Assembly: GCF_965641715.1 (NCBI RefSeq)
Contig: NZ_OZ282453.1
Source: Escherichia coli
Lineage (GTDB): Bacteria; Pseudomonadota; Gammaproteobacteria; Enterobacterales; Enterobacteriaceae
Reading direction: 5' to 3' (one strand)
Length of the DNA: 64,000 bases
Made by a program: the position numbers and the translations under genes. Below, piece by piece: positions 11,240 through 61,848 of this stretch. The notes below the pieces were generated by a model that searched no databases, was not told where the DNA came from, and worked only from the letters and a program-made list of their open reading frames with translations. Within the stretch, counting starts at the first letter, position 1; every line of letters starts with the position of its first letter.

Positions 11240-11414
11240 TATCGCGTCCTCAACAATGAATTTTGTGATGCAGTGCCTGGTGCCTCCAGGTGACGTTAAC
11301 CAGTTAACAATTAACGCCGGATACAGAGAATCCACCCATAACACTGTTTTTGGTTTTAACTGTTCCGCGTGCGCTTAGCCGCATTCACCGCATCACAAAA
11401 TTCACTTTAAAAAC

Positions 11415-11466
11415 GGCGGCAGAGCAGTCACGGAGTAAAACTGATACCGCCAAACGTCACCAGAAA
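11415..11466 (-). ncRNA. dicF: DicF small RNA (ftsZ-targeting sRNA)
   Basis: Minus-strand sequence tttctggtgacgtttggcggtatcagttttactccgtgactgctctgccgcc matches remembered DicF; lies directly upstream of dicB in the same operon orientation. Confidence 0.75.
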
Positions 11467-12440: not shown

Positions 12441-12632
12441 GCTGACCTCATTTCCCCTTAACGCCGGGGTAGCGGAACTGTTTGCTGAGAACACCGTGCG
12501 GTGTCTTGATGGAAGTAATTTAGTTTTCTCATTATTTTTCGTCAAGGTTTTTTTATGAGAAAACTCAAGTATTGGCGCAAGATAAAGCCAATACATTGAA
12601 ATGTAAGGCTTTAAAATTTTGTGAAGGGATGA

Positions 12633-13040
12633 TTATTGATGCTTGTTGCGTTTGCGAGCCTCTAATAGCTCGGTGAACAGGCGATTAAAATTCTCAACGC
12701 GGGCGCGGAGTTCGCTGAGTTGTGCTTGTTGCTCTGATTTAGGAAGTGCGCGATACAAACGCAGCATCTCTAACTCATCTTCCGATAAGTCTAAGGCACT
12801 ATCGAGTGAAACAGGGGGAGCTGGTGTTTTGTCCTCGTCGCCAAACAGTATCCAGGTTGGTGAACATTGCAATACCTCGGCGAGGCGATGCAAATTTTGC
12901 CCGCGCGGGGCTGTATGGTCACTTTCCCATAATGAAATTGATGAGCCAGATACGCCAGCAGCTTTGCTTAAACCGTTTTGACTTAAGCCTACCTGCTTAC
13001 GTCTTTCTCTAATGCGTTGACCTAAAGTTTTCTCGTTCAT
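12633..13040 (-). CDS. dicA: DicA-like HTH (XRE family) repressor
   Basis: MNEKTLGQRIRERRKQVGLSQNGLSKAAGVSGSSISLWESDHTAPRGQNLHRLAEVLQCSPTWILFGDEDK...; strong resemblance to DicA. Confidence 0.85.
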   Translation of the reverse strand: MNEKTLGQRIRERRKQVGLSQNGLSKAAGVSGSSISLWESDHTAPRGQNLHRLAEVLQCSPTWILFGDEDKTPAPPVSLDSALDLSEDELEMLRLYRALPKSEQQAQLSELRARVENFNRLFTELLEARKRNKHQ

Positions 13041-13117
13041 ATTTAGATATCTTAATAACCCTTGACTTGAGATTCCTTGAGTGATTAGCATTGAGAAAAC
13101 TCAATATTGGAGGTGCG
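13041..13117. promoter_or_regulatory. Divergent promoter/operator region between dicA-like and dicC-like genes
   Basis: 77-bp intergenic region with TTGACT (13062..13067) and 16-bp palindrome attgagaaaactcaat (13090..13105) just upstream of the dicC-like RBS. Confidence 0.5.
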
Positions 13118-13345
13118 ATGTTTAAATCAGACGTAATTAATTTTTACGGTACGAAAGCCAAAGTAGCGAAAGCTGCTGGCGTTGACCCATCTGCTGTTTC
13201 TCAATGGCAAGAGCTGGTTCCTGAAGGTCGCGCGATGCGTCTACAGGAGGCATCTGGCGGCGAGCTTCTGTATGATCCCAAGGTTTATGACGAATATCGT
13301 AAGACGAAGCGGGCGGGGCGGTTGAACAATGAAAATCACTCCTGA
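13118..13345 (+). CDS. dicC: DicC/Cro-like small regulator
   Basis: MFKSDVINFYGTKAKVAKAAGVDPSAVSQWQ...LVPEGRAMRLQEASGGELLYDPKVYDEYRK; divergent from dicA; GGAGG RBS. Confidence 0.7.
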   Translation: MFKSDVINFYGTKAKVAKAAGVDPSAVSQWQELVPEGRAMRLQEASGGELLYDPKVYDEYRKTKRAGRLNNENHS

Positions 13346-13850
13346 ACAGGCTCGTGAGGCTCTGGATGCCTGGATATGTCGACCAGGAATGACACAGGAG
13401 CAGGCGACGATATTAATCACTGAAGCATTCTGGGCTTTGAAAGAGCGCCCGAACATCGATGTTCAGCGTGTCACAGATGAAGGTGGCGCGGTTGATCAGC
13501 GAGCGCTTGGCGTTAATCGAGTGAAGATATTCGAACGCTGGAAGGCTATCGACACTAGGGATAAGCGTGAAAAGTTCACGGCGCTAGTGCCTGCAATTAT
13601 GGAGGCTATCCGGATTAATGATTTCAGGTTGTATCGTGAAATTAGTGACGGAAAAAGCATCACGTACATGATCGCCGGGTTAAACAAAGAATATGGCGAT
13701 GTGGTGGAGTCCGGACTGCTTTTTGCTGATCCTGCCGTAGTGGATCGTGAAACTGACGAACTTATAGAAAAAGCAATTGCTTTCAAACTTGCGTATCGAC
13801 AGCAATACCAACAAAAAGCTGGATGGAATTATGAGCCTTCTTTTTGCTGA
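13329..13850 (+). CDS. Hypothetical early-region protein (possibly YdaT/CII-like)
   Basis: 173-aa ORF downstream of cro-like gene; family not recognised with confidence. Confidence 0.45.
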   Translation: MKITPEQAREALDAWICRPGMTQEQATILITEAFWALKERPNIDVQRVTDEGGAVDQRALGVNRVKIFERWKAIDTRDKREKFTALVPAIMEAIRINDFRLYREISDGKSITYMIAGLNKEYGDVVESGLLFADPAVVDRETDELIEKAIAFKLAYRQQYQQKAGWNYEPSFC

Positions 13851-14796
13851 ACGCCCACTGGTTATAAACACACAGCTTGCGATGAAGATTGGCTTAAATG
13901 AAGCCATTGTGTTGCAGCAGTTGCATTACTGGTTGAGAGATACCAATTCCGGCATGGAATGTGATGGTGTTCGCTGGATTTACAACACAACGGAACAATG
14001 GCTGGAACAGTTCCCATTCTGGTCAGAGTCAACGTTAAAGCGCGCGTTTGCAAGTCTGAAAACGCTGGGGCTTTTGCGTTGTGAAAAGCTCAATAAATCA
14101 AAGCGCGATATGACCAATTTCTACACGATCAACTACGGGAGCGAGCTTTTAGATGGTGGCAAATTGAGCGAATCCATCGGTTTAAAATGCGCCGCTCCAT
14201 CAGGTCAAAATGACACGATGGAAGAGGTCAAAATGAAACGCTCCATTGGTTCAAAACGACCCAATGTCATCGGGTCAAAATGGCCTGATGATCTTACAGA
14301 GAATACAACAGAGATTACTACAGAGAATAAAAACACTTTTCGTCCGGAAGCTTCGCAACCGGACCCGCAGACCGCTGAACAGGATTTTTTAACCCGGAAC
14401 CCCGACGCGGTTGTGTTTAGTGCGAAAAAACGCCAGTGGGGTAGCAGGGAGGATTTGGCGTGTGCGCAGTGGATTTGGGGGCGGATCGTGAACCTTTACG
14501 AACAGGCTGCCAGCGACGATGGAGAGATCATGCGACCAAAAGAGCCTAACTGGACAGCCTGGGCCAATGACGTGCGCACAATGCGGATGCTGGATGGCAG
14601 AAGCCACAGACAAATTTGCGAAATGTTTGGTCGGGTACAGCGAGATCAATTCTGGGTAAAAAACATCATGAGCCCGTCAAAACTCCGCGAAAAATGGGAC
14701 GAACTGGTCATCCGCCTGGGACGTTCACCTGTACAGCGTTGTATGAATCATATTTCTGAACCGGATACAGAAATTCCGCCTGGTTTCAGAGGATAA
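13831..14796 (+). CDS. Phage replication protein with DnaT-like C-terminal domain
   Basis: ORF 13777..14796; start at ATG 13831 (MSLLFAERP); C-terminus ...NHISEPDTEIPPGFRG resembles the DnaT C-terminus (...VSEPDSQIPPGFRG); gene contains iterons. Confidence 0.65.
   Translation: MSLLFAERPLVINTQLAMKIGLNEAIVLQQLHYWLRDTNSGMECDGVRWIYNTTEQWLEQFPFWSESTLKRAFASLKTLGLLRCEKLNKSKRDMTNFYTINYGSELLDGGKLSESIGLKCAAPSGQNDTMEEVKMKRSIGSKRPNVIGSKWPDDLTENTTEITTENKNTFRPEASQPDPQTAEQDFLTRNPDAVVFSAKKRQWGSREDLACAQWIWGRIVNLYEQAASDDGEIMRPKEPNWTAWANDVRTMRMLDGRSHRQICEMFGRVQRDQFWVKNIMSPSKLREKWDELVIRLGRSPVQRCMNHISEPDTEIPPGFRG
14180..14340. repeat. Putative replication origin: iterons plus AT-rich tract inside the replication gene
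   Basis: ggtcaaaatg at 14203, 14226, 14273 and degenerate copies (ggtttaaaatg 14180, ggttcaaaacg 14248) at ~22-23 bp spacing, followed by AT-rich 14285..14340. Confidence 0.55.
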
Positions 14797-15672: not shown

Positions 15673-17022
15673 TTATTCCGTTTTACATATCATAGTAGTC
15701 GATTGGAGAATATAGTTTCTGGGAATGTACTCTTCAAAGTGTTCGTCCTTTTTAAATACATGAACTACATTTGGGAATAATTGATAGTCAACAGGGTGTA
15801 TAGCGTTTGGATTATGGTACATGTACATGGCTGTACACCATGGTTCTTGATAGTTAGGGTCACTTACATCGGCTGAAAATGGATGTGGGGCTGCATCCTG
15901 ATCAGTTTTAACACCACTGACGTACACTTTGAATCCACTCGCCTCTACACCTGCAAGAATTCCCATCCGGTTAAACTTAGGTATGGTTGCTTGAGTAGTG
16001 AGTAAAACGGCAGAAACATAATTATTTTGTTCTGAGCCAAAAAAGTTCGACTTGATACTTCTATTTTCATCTGTATGTCTTTCAATAGAAATGCCTGACT
16101 CAATATCAATCCCGTACAAATAGCTATGCAAGGCTTCGCTTGAGAAGGCCATGGACATTCTTTTTGAATAATCCTGCATTGCTATGACAAATGGTTTGTT
16201 CTTTGTATGGTTGAGTTCCCAGTAATGAACTTTCTCTGGCTCAGGGCAATGCCGGACTTTTTTTAATAAACTTCTTGCAAACTTAAAAGGCATGACATTT
16301 AGAACATGTTTTCTTAATTCATCCATCTGTTCATCGTTAATGACTTTTCTTTCAAGAGGGGCTTCTGCTTCAGCAATGCTTACAGCCTCTACAGCAATTT
16401 CCACTCCAAATTTAGATAGCAGAAAATCTGGTTGATTGTATTCTCTATTCATTTCAAAGTCGAGTTCATAAAATACAGCGTTCAAATATAATTCAAATAA
16501 CCTTGAATTAAATGCATCACTTTGAAAATCCCTTATAAATATTCCATCAGGATCTTTGAACCAGTATGCAAGTTCCTCAAGAACAATATATGCAGGGAAA
16601 TGAGGAGGGTCTTCGAGGAGCATTTTTATATAAACATTCCTTTTTTTCTCTGGGACTTTACTCAAGAATAATGAAAAAGGTTTGGTTGATTCATCGCCTT
16701 GCATGAATGTACCATTTTGGTGCTGCGCCAGCATCTTTGGTATGTCATCGTTCAAATTATTAAGCAAGACATCCATTGAATCAAATGAAGCCAAGACGTT
16801 TATTGCTCTGAATTTTTTATCTAAATCCCGACCTAAGACTATTGCGTTAAAATCTTTATCAATATTGCATATGATTATTGTGGATAACAATGTTATCCCA
16901 TTCCCCTCATATTTAAACCAGCGTATCTCCTCAGAAAATGTCTTAAGGTAAGGTGAGCGACCGTAAAAATAAATATCAAATTGTTCTTTGCTGATCTCAC
17001 TGAAGTGTAATCCTGCGTTCAT
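15673..17022 (-). CDS. Orphan 449-aa protein of unknown function (candidate accessory/defence gene)
   Basis: Single long ORF on the opposite strand to flanking phage genes, AAAGGA RBS, visibly AT-rich, flanked by ~430 and ~440 bp of non-coding DNA; no Walker A, no family recognised. Confidence 0.75.
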   Translation of the reverse strand: MNAGLHFSEISKEQFDIYFYGRSPYLKTFSEEIRWFKYEGNGITLLSTIIICNIDKDFNAIVLGRDLDKKFRAINVLASFDSMDVLLNNLNDDIPKMLAQHQNGTFMQGDESTKPFSLFLSKVPEKKRNVYIKMLLEDPPHFPAYIVLEELAYWFKDPDGIFIRDFQSDAFNSRLFELYLNAVFYELDFEMNREYNQPDFLLSKFGVEIAVEAVSIAEAEAPLERKVINDEQMDELRKHVLNVMPFKFARSLLKKVRHCPEPEKVHYWELNHTKNKPFVIAMQDYSKRMSMAFSSEALHSYLYGIDIESGISIERHTDENRSIKSNFFGSEQNNYVSAVLLTTQATIPKFNRMGILAGVEASGFKVYVSGVKTDQDAAPHPFSADVSDPNYQEPWCTAMYMYHNPNAIHPVDYQLFPNVVHVFKKDEHFEEYIPRNYILQSTTMICKTE

Positions 17023-17554: not shown

Positions 17555-17765
17555 TTTCACATTGGCGAGGTAACGGTAGTTAAGTAGAATGGCTGCGGGT
17601 GCTTGAGGCTATCTGCCTCGGGCATGAACACCAACGGCAGATAGAGAAAAGCCCCAGTTAACATTACGCGTCCTGCAAGACGCTTAACATTAATCTGAGG
17701 CCAATTTCATGCTAGACACATGTAGGTTAGCCTCTTACGTGCCGAAAGGCAAGGAGAAGCAGGCT

Positions 17766-17921
17766 ATGAAGCAGCAAAAGGCGATGTTAATCGCCCTGAT
17801 CGTCATCTGTTTAACCGTCATAGTGACGGCACTGGTAACGAGGAAAGACCTCTGCGAGGTACGAATCCGAACCGGGCAGACGGAGGTCGCTGTCTTCACA
17901 GCTTACGAACCTGAGGAGTAA
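17766..17921 (+). CDS. hokD: Hok-family type I toxin (HokD/RelF-like)
   Basis: MKQQKAMLIALIVICLTVIVTALVTRKDLCEVRIRTGQTEVAVFTAYEPEE; AAGGAG RBS; ORF track shows in-frame upstream extension from 17709 (mok-like). Confidence 0.9.
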   Translation: MKQQKAMLIALIVICLTVIVTALVTRKDLCEVRIRTGQTEVAVFTAYEPEE

Positions 17922-18137: not shown

Positions 18138-18389
18138 ATGATGAACATCGAAGAACTGCGTAAAATTTTTTGTGAAGATGGCCTCTATGCGGTGTGCGTT
18201 GAAAATGGAAATCTTGTTAGTCATTACCGCATTATGTGTTTGCGAAAGAATGGGGCTGCGTTAATTAATTTTGTGGATGGTCGAGTGACAGACGGATTTA
18301 TCTTGCGCGAAGGTGAGTTTGTCACTTCATTACAGGCACTGAAAGAGATCGGAATAAAAGCAGGCTTTTCAGCTTTTGCAGAAGAATAA
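18138..18389 (+). CDS. Hypothetical 83-aa protein (Rem-position)
   Basis: 83-aa ORF directly after hokD, same size and position as Qin rem in K-12 (identity from synteny only). Confidence 0.5.
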   Translation: MMNIEELRKIFCEDGLYAVCVENGNLVSHYRIMCLRKNGAALINFVDGRVTDGFILREGEFVTSLQALKEIGIKAGFSAFAEE

Positions 18390-46686: not shown

Positions 46687-49608
46687 GTGAATATGGCAGT
46701 AAAGATTTCAGGTGTACTGAAAGACGGCACAGGAAAACCGGTACAGAACTGCACAATCCAGCTGAAAGCAAAACGTAACAGCACCACGGTGGTGGTGAAC
46801 ACGCTGGCCTCAGAAAATCCGGATGAAGCCGGGCGTTACAGCATGGACGTTGAGTACGGGCAGTACAGCGTTATTCTGTTGGTGGAAGGATTCCCGCCGT
46901 CACATGCCGGGACCATCACCGTGTATGAAGATTCTCAACCCGGTACGCTGAATGATTTTCTCGGTGCCATGACGGAGGATGATGCCCGTCCGGAGGCACT
47001 GCGCCGTTTTGAACAGATGGTGGAAGAGGTGGCGCGTAACGCGTCCGTGGTGGCACAGAACACGGCAGCCGCGAAGAAGTCAGCCAGTGATGCCGGCACA
47101 TCTGCCCGTGAGGCGGCAACCCATGCGACTGATGCTGCAGATTCAGCACGTGCAGCCAGCACGTCAGCCGGACAGGCCGCTTCGTCGGCTCAGTCAGCGT
47201 CTTCCAGCGCAGGAACGGCATCAACAAAGGCCACTGAAGCGGAAAAAAGTGCTGCCGCTGCAGAGTCCTCAAAAAGCGCGGCAGCTACCAGTGCCGCTGC
47301 CGCGAAAACGTCAGAAACGAATGCTGCAGCGTCACAACAATCAGCCGCCACTTCTGCATCCACCGCGACTACGAAAGCGTCAGAAGCTGCCACCTCAGCC
47401 CGGGATGCGTCGGCTTCAAAAGAGGCGGCAAAATCATCAGAAACGAACGCATCCTCGAGCGCCAGTAGTGCAGCTTCCTCGGCAACGGCGGCAGCAAATT
47501 CCGCGAAGGCGGCAAAAACGTCCGAGACGAACGCCAGGTCTTCTGAGACGGCAGCGGGACAGAGCGCCTCAGCTGCGGCAGGCTCAAAAACAGCGGCTGC
47601 GTCGTCTGCCAGTGCCGCGTCAACAAGTGCCGGGCAGGCCTCAGCCAGTGCCACCGCTGCCGGAAAATCGGCAGAAAGCGCCGCATCGTCCGCTTCAACA
47701 GCCACAACGAAGGCTGGCGAAGCCACTGAACAGGCCAGCGCAGCAGCGAGGTCTGCTTCCGCAGCGAAGACATCCGAGACGAACGCGAAAGCGTCGGAAA
47801 CCAGCGCAGAATCCTCAAAAACGGCTGCCGCATCGTCCGCCAGTTCGGCGGCGTCATCGGCATCATCTGCGTCTGCTTCAAAAGATGAGGCGAGCAGACA
47901 GGCGTCAGCAGCAAAGGGCAGCGCCACGACGGCATCCACGAAGGCGACAGAGGCAGCTGGCAGTGCGACGGCGGCAGCTCAGAGCAAAAGTACGGCGGAA
48001 TCCGCGGCAACGCGCGCCGAGACAGCGGCAAAACGGGCAGAGGATATTGCATCCGCCGTGGCGCTTGAGGATGCGAGCACGACGAAAAAGGGGATAGTAC
48101 AGCTCAGCAGTGCGACTAACAGCACTTCCGAGTCACTGGCGGCAACGCCAAAAGCCGTTAAGGCCGCGTATGAGCTGGCTAACGGGAAATACACCGCACA
48201 GGATGCAACGACAGCACAGAAAGGGATAGTTCAGCTCAGCAGCGCGACCAACAGCACATCTGAAATGCTGGCGGCAACGCCAAAGTCGGTAAAGGCAGCC
48301 TATGACCTTGCTAACGGGAAATATACTGCTCAGGACGCTACGACAGCACAAAAAGGAATTGTCCAGCTCAGTAGTGCAACCAACAGCGCATCTGAAACGC
48401 TTGCCGCGACACCGAAAGCAGTGAAAGCAGCTAATGATAATGCGAATGGTCGGGTACCTTCTGCCCGTAAGGTGAATGGTAAGGCGCTTTCAGCGGATAT
48501 AACACTGACGCCGAAAGATATTGGTACGCTTAACTCAACAACAATGTCATTCAGCGGTGGTGCTGGTTGGTTCAAATTAGCAACGGTAACCATGCCACAG
48601 GCGAGTTCTGTTGTTTCAATTACGTTGATTGGTGGCGCGGGATTTAACGTGGGGTCACCTCAACAGGCAGGTATATCTGAACTTGTTTTGCGTGCAGGTA
48701 ATGGTAATCCGAAGGGGATTACTGGTGCTTTATGGCAGCGCACATCGACAGGGTTTACAAATTTTGCCTGGGTCAATACATCTGGTGATACTTACGATAT
48801 TTACGTTGCAATCGGAAATTATGCGACTGGTGTAAATATTCAATGGGATTATACCAGTAATGCCAGCGTGACTATTCATACGTCACCAGCATATTCTGCT
48901 AATAAGCCGGAAGGGTTAACGGACGGTACAGTTTATTCACTCTATACGCCATCAGAGCAGTTTTATCCGCCTGGCGCACCAATCCCGTGGCCATCAGATA
49001 CCGTTCCGTCTGGTTATGCCCTGATGCAGGGGCAGACTTTTGACAAATCTGCTTACCCGAAACTTGCAACCGCTTATCCGTCAGGCGTGATCCCTGATAT
49101 GCGTGGCTGGACGATTAAGGGCAAACCTGCCAGTGGTCGGGCCGTATTGTCTCAGGAACAGGACGGCATTAAATCGCACACCCACAGCGCCAGCGCATCC
49201 AGTACGGATTTGGGGACGAAAACCACATCGTCGTTTGATTACGGCACTAAATCCACGAATAACACCGGGGCGCATACGCACAGTGTGAGCGGTACAGCCG
49301 CAAGTGCCGGAAACCATACTCATAGTGTCACAGGCGCATCAGCAGTCAGCCAGTGGTCACAAAATGGGTCAGTACATAAGGTAGTGTCTGCGGCCAGTGT
49401 GAATACAAGTGCTGCAGGAGCGCACACTCATAGTGTCAGCGGCACAGCTGCATCTGCAGGTGCTCACGCACATACTGTCGGTATTGGTGCTCATACGCAC
49501 TCTGTTGCGATTGGCTCACATGGACACACCATCACCGTTAACGCTGCTGGTAACGCGGAAAACACTGTCAAAAACATCGCATTTAACTACATTGTGAGGC
49601 TTGCATAA
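46687..49608 (+). CDS. stf: Side tail fibre protein (Stf) with expanded internal repeats
   Basis: [27 protein letters not shown]... lambda Stf-like N-terminus, long Ala/Ser-rich tract, three near-identical ~40-aa repeats, HTHS repeats, C-terminus [24 protein letters not shown]. Confidence 0.9.
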
Positions 49609-50183
49609 TGGCATTCAGAATGAGTGAACAACCACGGACCATAAAAATTTATAATCTGCTGGCAGGAACTAATGAATTTATTGGTGAAGGTGACGCATAT
49701 ATTCCGCCTCATACAGGTCTGCCAGCAAACAGTTCCTATATTGCACCGCCAGATATTCCGGCTGGCTTCGTGGCTGTTTTCAACAGTGATGAGGCATCGT
49801 GGCATCTCGTTGAAGATCATCGGGGTAAAACCGTCTATGACGTGGCTTCCGGCGACGCGTTATTTATTTCTGAACTTGGCCCATTACCGGAAAATATCAC
49901 CTGGTTATCCCCGGAAGGGGAGTTTCAGAAGTGGAACGGCACAGCCTGGGTGAAGGATACGGAAGCAGCAAAACTGTTCCGGATCCGGGAGGCGGAAGAA
50001 ACAAAAAACAACCTGATGCAGGTAGCCAGTGAGCATATTGCGCCGCTTCAGGATGCTGCAGATCTGGAAATTGCAACGGAGGAAGAAATCTCGTTGCTGG
50101 AAGCATGGAAAAAGTATCGGGTATTGCTGAACCGTGTTGATACGTCAACTGCACAGGATATTGAATGGCCAGCACTGCCGTAG
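49608..50183 (+). CDS. tfa: Tail fibre assembly protein (Tfa)
   Basis: 191 aa, ATGA overlap with stf; Tfa-like sequence. Confidence 0.85.
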
Positions 50184-61533: not shown

Positions 61534-61752
61534 GCTCCGTTTAACATTCATTGAGAAAACTGATGCTACTGTGTCAACGATCCGTTATCAGTGCAGGAAA
61601 ATGCCTGTTAGCGTAAAAGCAAAACACAAATCTATCCATGCAAGCATTCACCGCCGGTTTACTGGCGGTTTTTTTTTCGCCGTCATAAAAATCAGGCCCC
61701 TTGTACACAACTGTAACAAGGGGCCGGTTAGGTGAGGGATTATCTCCGTTCA

Positions 61753-61848
61753 TTAGTCATCCCATTTGTGGCTGAAATACGCGGCCAGAAAACCAGAAAA
61801 TAAAATTATTCCCAGTACGGCCATAAAAACATTCATATTACCCAGCAT
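61753..61848 (-). CDS. mgtS: Small membrane protein MgtS (YneM), 31 aa
   Basis: Minus-strand GGAGG RBS then MLGNMNVFMAVLGIILFSGFLAAYFSHKWDD; below ORF-track size cutoff; matches remembered MgtS. Confidence 0.7.
   Translation of the reverse strand: MLGNMNVFMAVLGIILFSGFLAAYFSHKWDD

Follow-up and report, generated by a model that had tools for sequence, protein, structure and literature searches.

In the well-established lambda switch, the repressor and cro genes diverge from a tripartite OR, and duplicate sites lie at PL; the maintenance transcript is leaderless and autoregulated, and the immunity cassette is mosaic (PMC10448788). The switch described here follows the same logic, without sequence homology to lambda in its repressor or operators. 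The closest described systems are those of the Qin prophage of Escherichia coli K-12 and of phage P22, whose record annotates OR1-3, OL1-3, PR, PRM and the start of the PRM transcript. A genetic study by Yun et al. found that DicA of Qin binds the operator Oc in vivo and that single-base changes abolish this binding; DicA represses dicC and activates dicA, Cnu-H-NS acts at the dicA/dicC promoter, and the other two Qin sites, Om and Oa, showed no binding by DicA alone in the in vivo assay (PMC3441716). ChIP-seq of K-12 DicC gave peaks on both sides of dicA, the strongest at its own promoter (PMC11430063). In K-12, repression by DicA is relieved by the small protein Rem, which was identified via its similarity to GfoA/FsoA relatives (PMC10448788). 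Prophages of the Gifsy/Fels type likewise combine a short repressor that lacks a cleavage domain with a small antirepressor, as does the element analysed here, in which a Rem homologue is present.

We analysed a stretch of 64,000 nucleotides of E. coli DNA (hereafter the window), in which a gap of 77 bp (13041-13117) separates the start codon of a DicA-like repressor (complement of 13038-13040) from the ATG of a Cro-like gene (13118). This gap contains the sequence ATTGAGAAAACTCAAT at 13090-13105 (+). Our results suggest that this sequence is very likely the promoter-proximal operator (OR1/Oc) of the switch of an mEp460-like lambdoid prophage, and that it is, as far as its sequence can tell, an ordinary lambdoid operator of the P22/DicA kind with a sequence specificity of its own. 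The first-pass annotation had described it as a 16-bp palindrome between divergent dicA-like and dicC-like genes. The string is present within the gap but is an imperfect, interrupted palindrome, with 6-bp arms (ATTGAG/CTCAAT) on either side of an asymmetric AAAA centre and 12 of 16 positions identical to its own reverse complement. The identity of the two genes is borne out by their similarity to K-12 DicA (57% identity over 127 aa) and DicC and by their HTH_3 and P22_Cro domains (Table 1). A search of full-text literature, covering the open literature only, gave no match to the exact operator string, and we know of no earlier account of this operator from it.

Table 1. Coordinates of the genes, candidate operators and predicted promoters of the switch
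Feature	Coordinates	Strand	Remarks
DicA-like immunity repressor, 135 aa, MNEKTLGQ...	12633..13040	-	N-terminal HTH_3; ATG 13040-13038, stop 12633
DicC/Cro-like gene, 75 aa, MFKSDVINFYG...	13118..13345	+	Pfam P22_Cro; 70% identity to K-12 DicC
Rem antirepressor homologue	18138..18386	+	tblastn 96% identity to K-12 Rem over 83 aa
Oc / OR1-equivalent operator	13090..13105	+	ATTGAG-AAAA-CTCAAT, 16/16; position as Qin Oc and P22 OR1
Om / OR2-equivalent candidate	13066..13081	+	CTTGAG-ATTC-CTTGAG, 9/16; left half perfect, right half poor
Oa / OR3-equivalent candidate	13041..13056	+	ATTTAGATATCTTAAT, ATTTAG-ATAT-CTTAAT, 12/16 on both strands
PR-like promoter of cro-like gene, predicted	13062..13091	+	TTGACT 13062-13067, 18-nt spacer, TAGCAT 13086-13091; sigma-70-like
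PRM-like promoter of repressor gene, predicted	13049..13077	-	AGGAAT 13077-13072, 17-nt spacer, TAAGAT 13054-13049
OL1-equivalent operator	12518..12533	-	AATGAGAAAACTAAAT, AATGAG-AAAA-CTAAAT, 14/16; covers leftward spacer and -10
OL2-equivalent operator	12554..12569	+	TATGAGAAAACTCAAG, TATGAG-AAAA-CTCAAG, 13/16; just upstream of leftward -35
PL / dicBp-equivalent promoter, predicted	12517..12545	-	TTGACG 12545-12540, 17-nt spacer, TAAATT 12522-12517
Possible fourth site	13022..13037	-	AACGAGAAAACTTTAG, 11/16; repressor codons 2-5; 19 bp from Oa

Copies of the operator are clustered beside the repressor gene. At three mismatches or fewer the 16-mer has four matches in the 64-kb window, against 1.02 expected, and three of these flank the repressor gene. 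Five distinct sites match at 12 or more of 16 positions, four of them within the 266 non-coding nucleotides on either side of this gene. The 13-mer TGAGAAAACTCAA occurs exactly twice in the window, at 12556 and 13092, and only three 10-mers of the window, AGTTTTCTCA among them, have three copies that lie within 700 nt without overlapping. This clustering excludes a chance origin of the sequence at 13090-13105. The proposed overlap with the promoter of the cro-like gene also holds, as the operator enters the -10 element, covering its last 2 nt together with the expected transcription start. The -10 reads TACTAT in a subtype of 92% DNA identity (see below), in which the TA..AT anchor positions are kept. 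A possible alternative cro -35, TTGAGT at 13076, was judged by eye and rejected, there being no acceptable -10 at 17±1 nt from it.

The whole intergenic region can be aligned with that of P22. In the same orientation, P22 OR reads cat-AGTTAAGTCATCTTAAAT-AAAC-TTGACT-AAAGATTCCTTTAGT-AGATA-ATTTAAGTGTTCTTTAAT and the window reads cat-ATTTAGATATCTTAAT-AACCC-TTGACT-TGAGATTCCTTGAGT-GATTAGC-ATTGAGAAAACTCAAT, with 50 of 87 positions identical. Both phages have divergent repressor and cro genes, separated by 80 bp in P22 and 77 bp in the window; the switch had been called compact, but it is about as compact as that of P22. Nor does it consist of a single palindrome: the palindrome is real, but it is one member of a probably tripartite layout homologous to P22 OR. 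The site spacings are 25 and 23 bp in P22 and 25 (Oa to Om) and 24 bp (Om to Oc) in the window, where the centres lie at 13048.5 (Oa), 13073.5 (Om) and 13097.5 (Oc). The two regions share the PR -35, TTGACT, which aligns with the annotated P22 element, the PRM hexamers AGGAAT-17-TAAGAT (for P22, read from what its record annotates as the maintenance promoter of c2) and the OR2 centre, GATTCCTT in Om being identical in the alignment to the centre of P22 OR2, ACTAAAGATTCCTTTAGT. They also share a site geometry of 18 bp with a 4-bp non-contacted centre, and both Cro proteins belong to the P22_Cro family. The two weaker sites are to be read with caution as to their scores (Oc 16/16, Oa 12/16, Om 9/16), and their assignment rests on homology with P22 and on invariance. 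Om varies hardly at all within the operator type; it adjoins the PR -35 and shares bases with the PRM -35, and we infer that the repressor may bind there. Oa, the positional homologue of P22 OR3 (AGTTAAGTCATCTTAAAT), is invariant in 60 sequences; the start codon of the repressor adjoins it, and the PRM-like -10 overlaps with it. Both PRM-like hexamers are invariant as well. A generic promoter scan did not call the PRM-like promoter, as would be expected if this promoter were weak and needed an activator, which has been reported of the dicA promoter (PMC3441716). In the P22 annotation, 4 nt separate the start of the maintenance transcript from the ATG, and by homology the PRM-like transcript would be nearly leaderless.

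A search for further half-sites had been proposed for 12441-12632 as well as for the intergenic gap; in addition to the two weaker sites of the gap, it yielded two strong copies at the leftward promoter. This predicted PL-equivalent promoter would drive the ydfA-like gene (DUF1391), DicF (11414-11465, minus strand; Rfam 72.5 bits) and the dicB-like gene, which lie in this order downstream of the repressor gene; the identity of the dicB-like gene is taken from the annotation of phage mEp460_ev081. OL1 and OL2 bracket the -35 of the promoter at a distance of 36 bp. Their P22 equivalents flank the PL -35 at 35 bp, as read from the annotated OL region, and the OL regions are homologous, P22 OL2 being GAAGAAAACTTAA where the window has TGAGAAAACTCAA. 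A large inverted repeat in this region (17 nt, 88% complementary) is explained by the two operator copies having opposite orientations. P22 has an OL3, whereas no convincing OL3 was found in the window: 12570-12632 contains no match of at least 11/16, and an isolated half-site, CATTGAA at 12594, was unconvincing as a candidate. No intrinsic terminator was found where one was sought, after the repressor gene. The stretch between OL2 and the repressor stop codon includes a segment, 12581-12615, that is invariant in both subtypes and has no operator-like site, and an imperfect inverted repeat, TATTGGC/GCCAATA at 12570-12593, that is not kept in the 92% subtype. Within the repressor gene itself, codons 2-5 contain the 9-nt operator core GAGAAAACT at 13026-13034. 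The surrounding site (13022-13037) may serve autoregulation as a fourth operator or may reflect the coding sequence by coincidence, its conservation being inseparable from coding constraint.

Comparison with Qin places the switch in the same module family but in a different immunity type. The repressors of the two are related along their entire length, DicC and Rem are conserved as given in Table 1, and the gene order is the same, with ydfA...DicF-dicB downstream of the repressor. Relative to the dicC -10, the Qin operator has the same placement, dicBp has two more copies, and the dicCp/dicBp layout agrees with the OR/OL layout seen here (PMC10448788). K-12 Oc, TTGTTAGTTATGACTAACAA (L002 2256-2275), reaches into the end of the dicC -10, just as Oc does in the window. 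An operator role for the palindrome is thus supported by its having the same position as a genetically validated DicA operator (PMC3441716). The operators themselves are unrelated in sequence: Qin Oc is TTGTTAGTNNNNACTAACAA (TTGTTAGT-TATG-ACTAACAA), as against ATTGAG-AAAA-CTCAAT, and the TTAG/CTAA cores are 6 bp apart in Qin but 4 bp apart in the window. The repressors differ by part, with 24 of 54 residues identical in the N-terminal domain and 51 of 79 in the C-terminal part. With N-terminal domains so different, the two switches are expected to be hetero-immune. Qin is a cryptic remnant; the element in the window has the full length of a prophage and is collinear with a phage that is functional.

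The suggestion that the palindrome defines immunity specificity is strengthened by a wider comparison of DicA-type loci. Further immunity types were collected by tblastn against phage records; a scan of IMG/VR with a repressor alignment of five types returned, among its best 80 matches, only loci of the window's type, which were used for the footprint within the type. There are five operator types in total, that of the window and four others from five further DicA-type loci, and in every one a palindrome peculiar to the type is found in the same positions, once at Oc and twice at OL. The K-12 type is TTGTTAGT-N4-ACTAACAA (GTTAGT..ACTAAC); BL21 and phage BUCT708 share TGTTAGA-N4-TCTAACA and an identical helix 3; strain 1613 has CCTTAGG-N4-TCTAAGG; and phiES15 has ACTAAC-AAAA-GTTAGT. 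The recognition helix of the repressor varies between types along with the operator. High identity to the other types (90-99.8%) is lost inside OL1 (12511-12523) and regained just after the HTH of the cro-like gene, at about codon 32 of this gene (13211-13217). The outer half of OL1 (ATTTAG, with the -10 TAAATT) is common to all immunity types, the breakpoint falls within OL1, and only the first ~31 codons of the cro-like gene, encoding the HTH, are immunity-specific. These breakpoints indicate that operators, repressor and Cro HTH form one cassette of ~700 bp (about 12512-13216), which we propose, from these alignments, to be what sets immunity specificity.

Within the type, the palindrome is conserved while its flanking bases change. 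The 80 IMG/VR loci encode the same repressor at 96-100% identity, and 78 spanned the 800-nt region; 59 distinct sequences and the window gave an alignment of 60, composed mainly of two clades, at about 92% and about 99% DNA identity to the window. Common variants, with the minor allele in at least 10 sequences, were found in none of the 70 operator-core columns and in 30 of the 134 other cassette-specific non-coding columns (Fisher p = 9e-7), a test that amounts to roughly one comparison of two clades, with about 30 independent substitution columns. In the 60 sequences the 14-bp core of Oc (13091-13104) has no common variant, and its AAAA centre is conserved as strictly as the arms. Variable columns directly adjoin the cores, at 13088-89, 13105-06, 12533-37, 12554 and 12569-71; the OL1 core is invariant, and the OL2 core is kept while both its flanks vary. 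As a caveat, invariance extends to large parts of the adjacent non-coding DNA, 12581-12615 among them.

It might be argued that the site is mainly a target of the Cro-like (DicC-like) protein and serves the late shut-down of early transcription rather than lysogeny. The immunity-specific part of this P22_Cro member is exactly its HTH, and in K-12 the strongest DicC signal is at its own promoter, sites having been deduced to either side of dicA. In lambda and P22, however, Cro and repressor share operators, so that the two readings are not exclusive; the equivalent Oc of Qin is bound by DicA, with loss of binding upon single-base changes; and it is the recognition helix of the repressor that differs between types along with the operator. 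We regard a role mainly for the Cro-like protein as improbable, and would expect its binding beside that of the repressor, not in place of it.

Explanations that dispense with an immunity protein altogether are more improbable still. The 20-mer containing Oc folds at -4.4 kcal/mol (z = -8 versus shuffles), as would be anticipated if the 5' leader of the cro-like mRNA contained the palindrome as an RNA hairpin affecting stability or translation. The OL1 copy does not fold (0 kcal/mol) and the OL2 copy folds weakly (-2.4 kcal/mol, z = -1.6), yet the DNA motif is kept in both; moreover, transcription is predicted to start within the palindrome, conservation is as strict in the non-pairing AAAA centre as in the arms, and in a 40-nt context the hairpin is not the preferred fold. 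We rejected the hairpin on the failure of the OL copies to fold, and consider it very unlikely. Equally slight is the probability that the A/T-rich repeat arose by chance or serves a nucleoid protein of the host (H-NS/Cnu, Fis, IHF), without a role in immunity specificity. The region is A/T-rich, Cnu-H-NS acts at the corresponding promoter of Qin, and one unrelated 13/16 match occurs at 61550; against this stand the clustering of the sites, their type-specific covariation and the conservation of their cores, and a host-factor site would not be expected to change with the type of repressor.

We therefore return to the reading of 13090-13105 as the promoter-proximal operator of the prophage switch. 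By analogy with the described systems, we infer binding, order of occupancy, activation and route of induction as follows. A dimer of the DicA-like repressor would place one helix-turn-helix on each TTGAG half-site and would read the AAAA centre indirectly, as a narrow-groove A-tract. Repressor bound at Oc would occlude the rightward -10 and start site, keeping the cro-like and replication genes off, while repressor bound at the two near-identical sites of the leftward promoter would keep off ydfA-dicF-dicB and the recombination genes. The weaker Om and Oa, 24-25 bp apart, would complete a P22-like tripartite OR; repressor at Oc/Om would probably activate the weak maintenance promoter of its own gene, and the Cro-like protein (or excess repressor) at Oa would probably repress it. 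As Om and Oa of Qin are not bound by DicA alone, this tripartite model of occupancy may not hold.

The means of induction is likely to differ from that of P22. The repressor has 135 aa and a DicA-type C-terminal domain, whereas P22 c2 has 216 aa and a RecA-cleavable S24 domain; a Pfam search of the 135-aa repressor matched HTH families only (HTH_3, E = 2e-15) and gave no match to Peptidase_S24. As there is no self-cleavage domain, induction would be expected to occur via the Rem antirepressor and not via RecA-mediated cleavage, and the Rem homologue, encoded ~5 kb from the operator, is by analogy with K-12 the probable inducer of the switch. Lambda CI is RecA-cleavable, and LexA controls the antirepressors of Gifsy. 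The window contains CTGT-N8-ACAG only at 1713 and 26375; neither rem nor the switch has a LexA box in its vicinity. Rem is far more similar between the window and Qin than are the two parts of the repressor, the C-terminal part being the better conserved of these, and this fits, speculatively, an action of Rem on the C-terminal domain of the repressor. It hints that Rem could cross-induce prophages of different immunity types.

The relationship to P22 c2 raises a further question, namely how the specificity of the two repressors diverged. The N-terminal domain of the window's repressor is 47% identical to P22 c2 over residues 1-72 by tblastn (PDB 1adr/2r1j, E about 1e-15), and the homology ends at residue ~72. 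As compiled from all sites, the half-site is T-A-T-T-G-A-G in the window and A-T-T-T-A-A-G in P22, the consistent difference being G for A at position 5 (TTGAG versus TTAAG). The P22 consensus ATTTAAG-N4-CTTAAAT is not matched, the strong sites of the window having G at position 5; Oa alone keeps one P22-like half (CTTAA). In the recognition helix the window has SGSSISLWES where P22 has SNVAISQWER (N32G, V33S, A34S, Q37L and R40S), changes that match the change of half-site from TTAAG to TTGAG. The P22 repressor binds an operator with an A-tract centre best, with a KD of 4.3 versus 14-58 nM (PMC4267663), and this preference may be the reason for the invariant AAAA in the three strong sites. 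It is conceivable, though we think it rather unlikely, that this repressor with its operators and P22 c2 make up a natural specificity-switch pair in which an A-tract centre is obligatory. About one contacted base per half-site would then have changed on a common scaffold and geometry, with loss of P22 Val33/Asn32/Gln37 and with Arg in place of Asn46 at the mouth of the minor groove. If so, the repressor would be a compact model of how immunity specificity evolves by coupled changes in protein and DNA. In any case, it offers a natural comparison to P22 c2 for studies of the specificity of DNA recognition.

The element that carries the switch is probably an intact mEp460-like lambdoid prophage. 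Its 1.1-kb switch region is 99.9% identical to that of the functional gut phage mEp460_ev081, and the window is collinear with this phage from ~6606 to ~50000 at about 98%, from which the intactness of the prophage is judged. The immunity type was found, at a coverage of at least 80%, in 796 of 5426 complete E. coli genomes. Our analysis defines the operator motif and cassette boundaries of a type present in about 15% of these genomes, allows superinfection immunity and heteroimmunity among DicA-type prophages to be predicted, and identifies what probably controls the toxic dicF/dicB genes in strains with this type of prophage. The practical value is modest, and no new kind of biology is involved.

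Several other features of the window were observed. The replication-initiator gene (13777-14796) contains, at 14161-14331, five direct repeats of ~23 bp (core GGTCAAAATG, 23-24 bp apart) and, after them, three 12-nt repeats, ACAGAGAATACA; this is probably a phage origin with iterons, as in the O gene of lambda. Between the replication genes and hok/sok, on the opposite strand, lies an ORF of 449 aa (15673-17022, minus strand) that has no Pfam match, is annotated as 'hypothetical' in mEp460_ev081 and matches anti-phage defence models of PADLOC, namely PD-T7-1 (E = 4e-157) and, less strongly, PD-T7-5, which gives it the look of a defence 'moron'. Besides DicF, the Rfam matches at gathering score were the sok antitoxin RNA, two tRNA genes, a cspA-type thermoregulator and IS009 (17597-17771, 21134-21383, 25371-25787 and 49951-50149, in that order, all on the plus strand), and STnc100 was found at 22083-22273. 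The 10-mer GCGGCAACGC occurs three times, at 48004, 48139 and 48271, with a spacing of ~130 bp, probably in the tail-fibre region. Outside the prophage, the 13/16 operator match mentioned above, ATTGAGAAAACTGATG (61550-61565, plus strand), falls at the 5' end of STnc560, an sRNA gene of the host (61545-61759; Rfam 277 bits). This could be a host target, but as it has only one good half-site it is probably a chance match.
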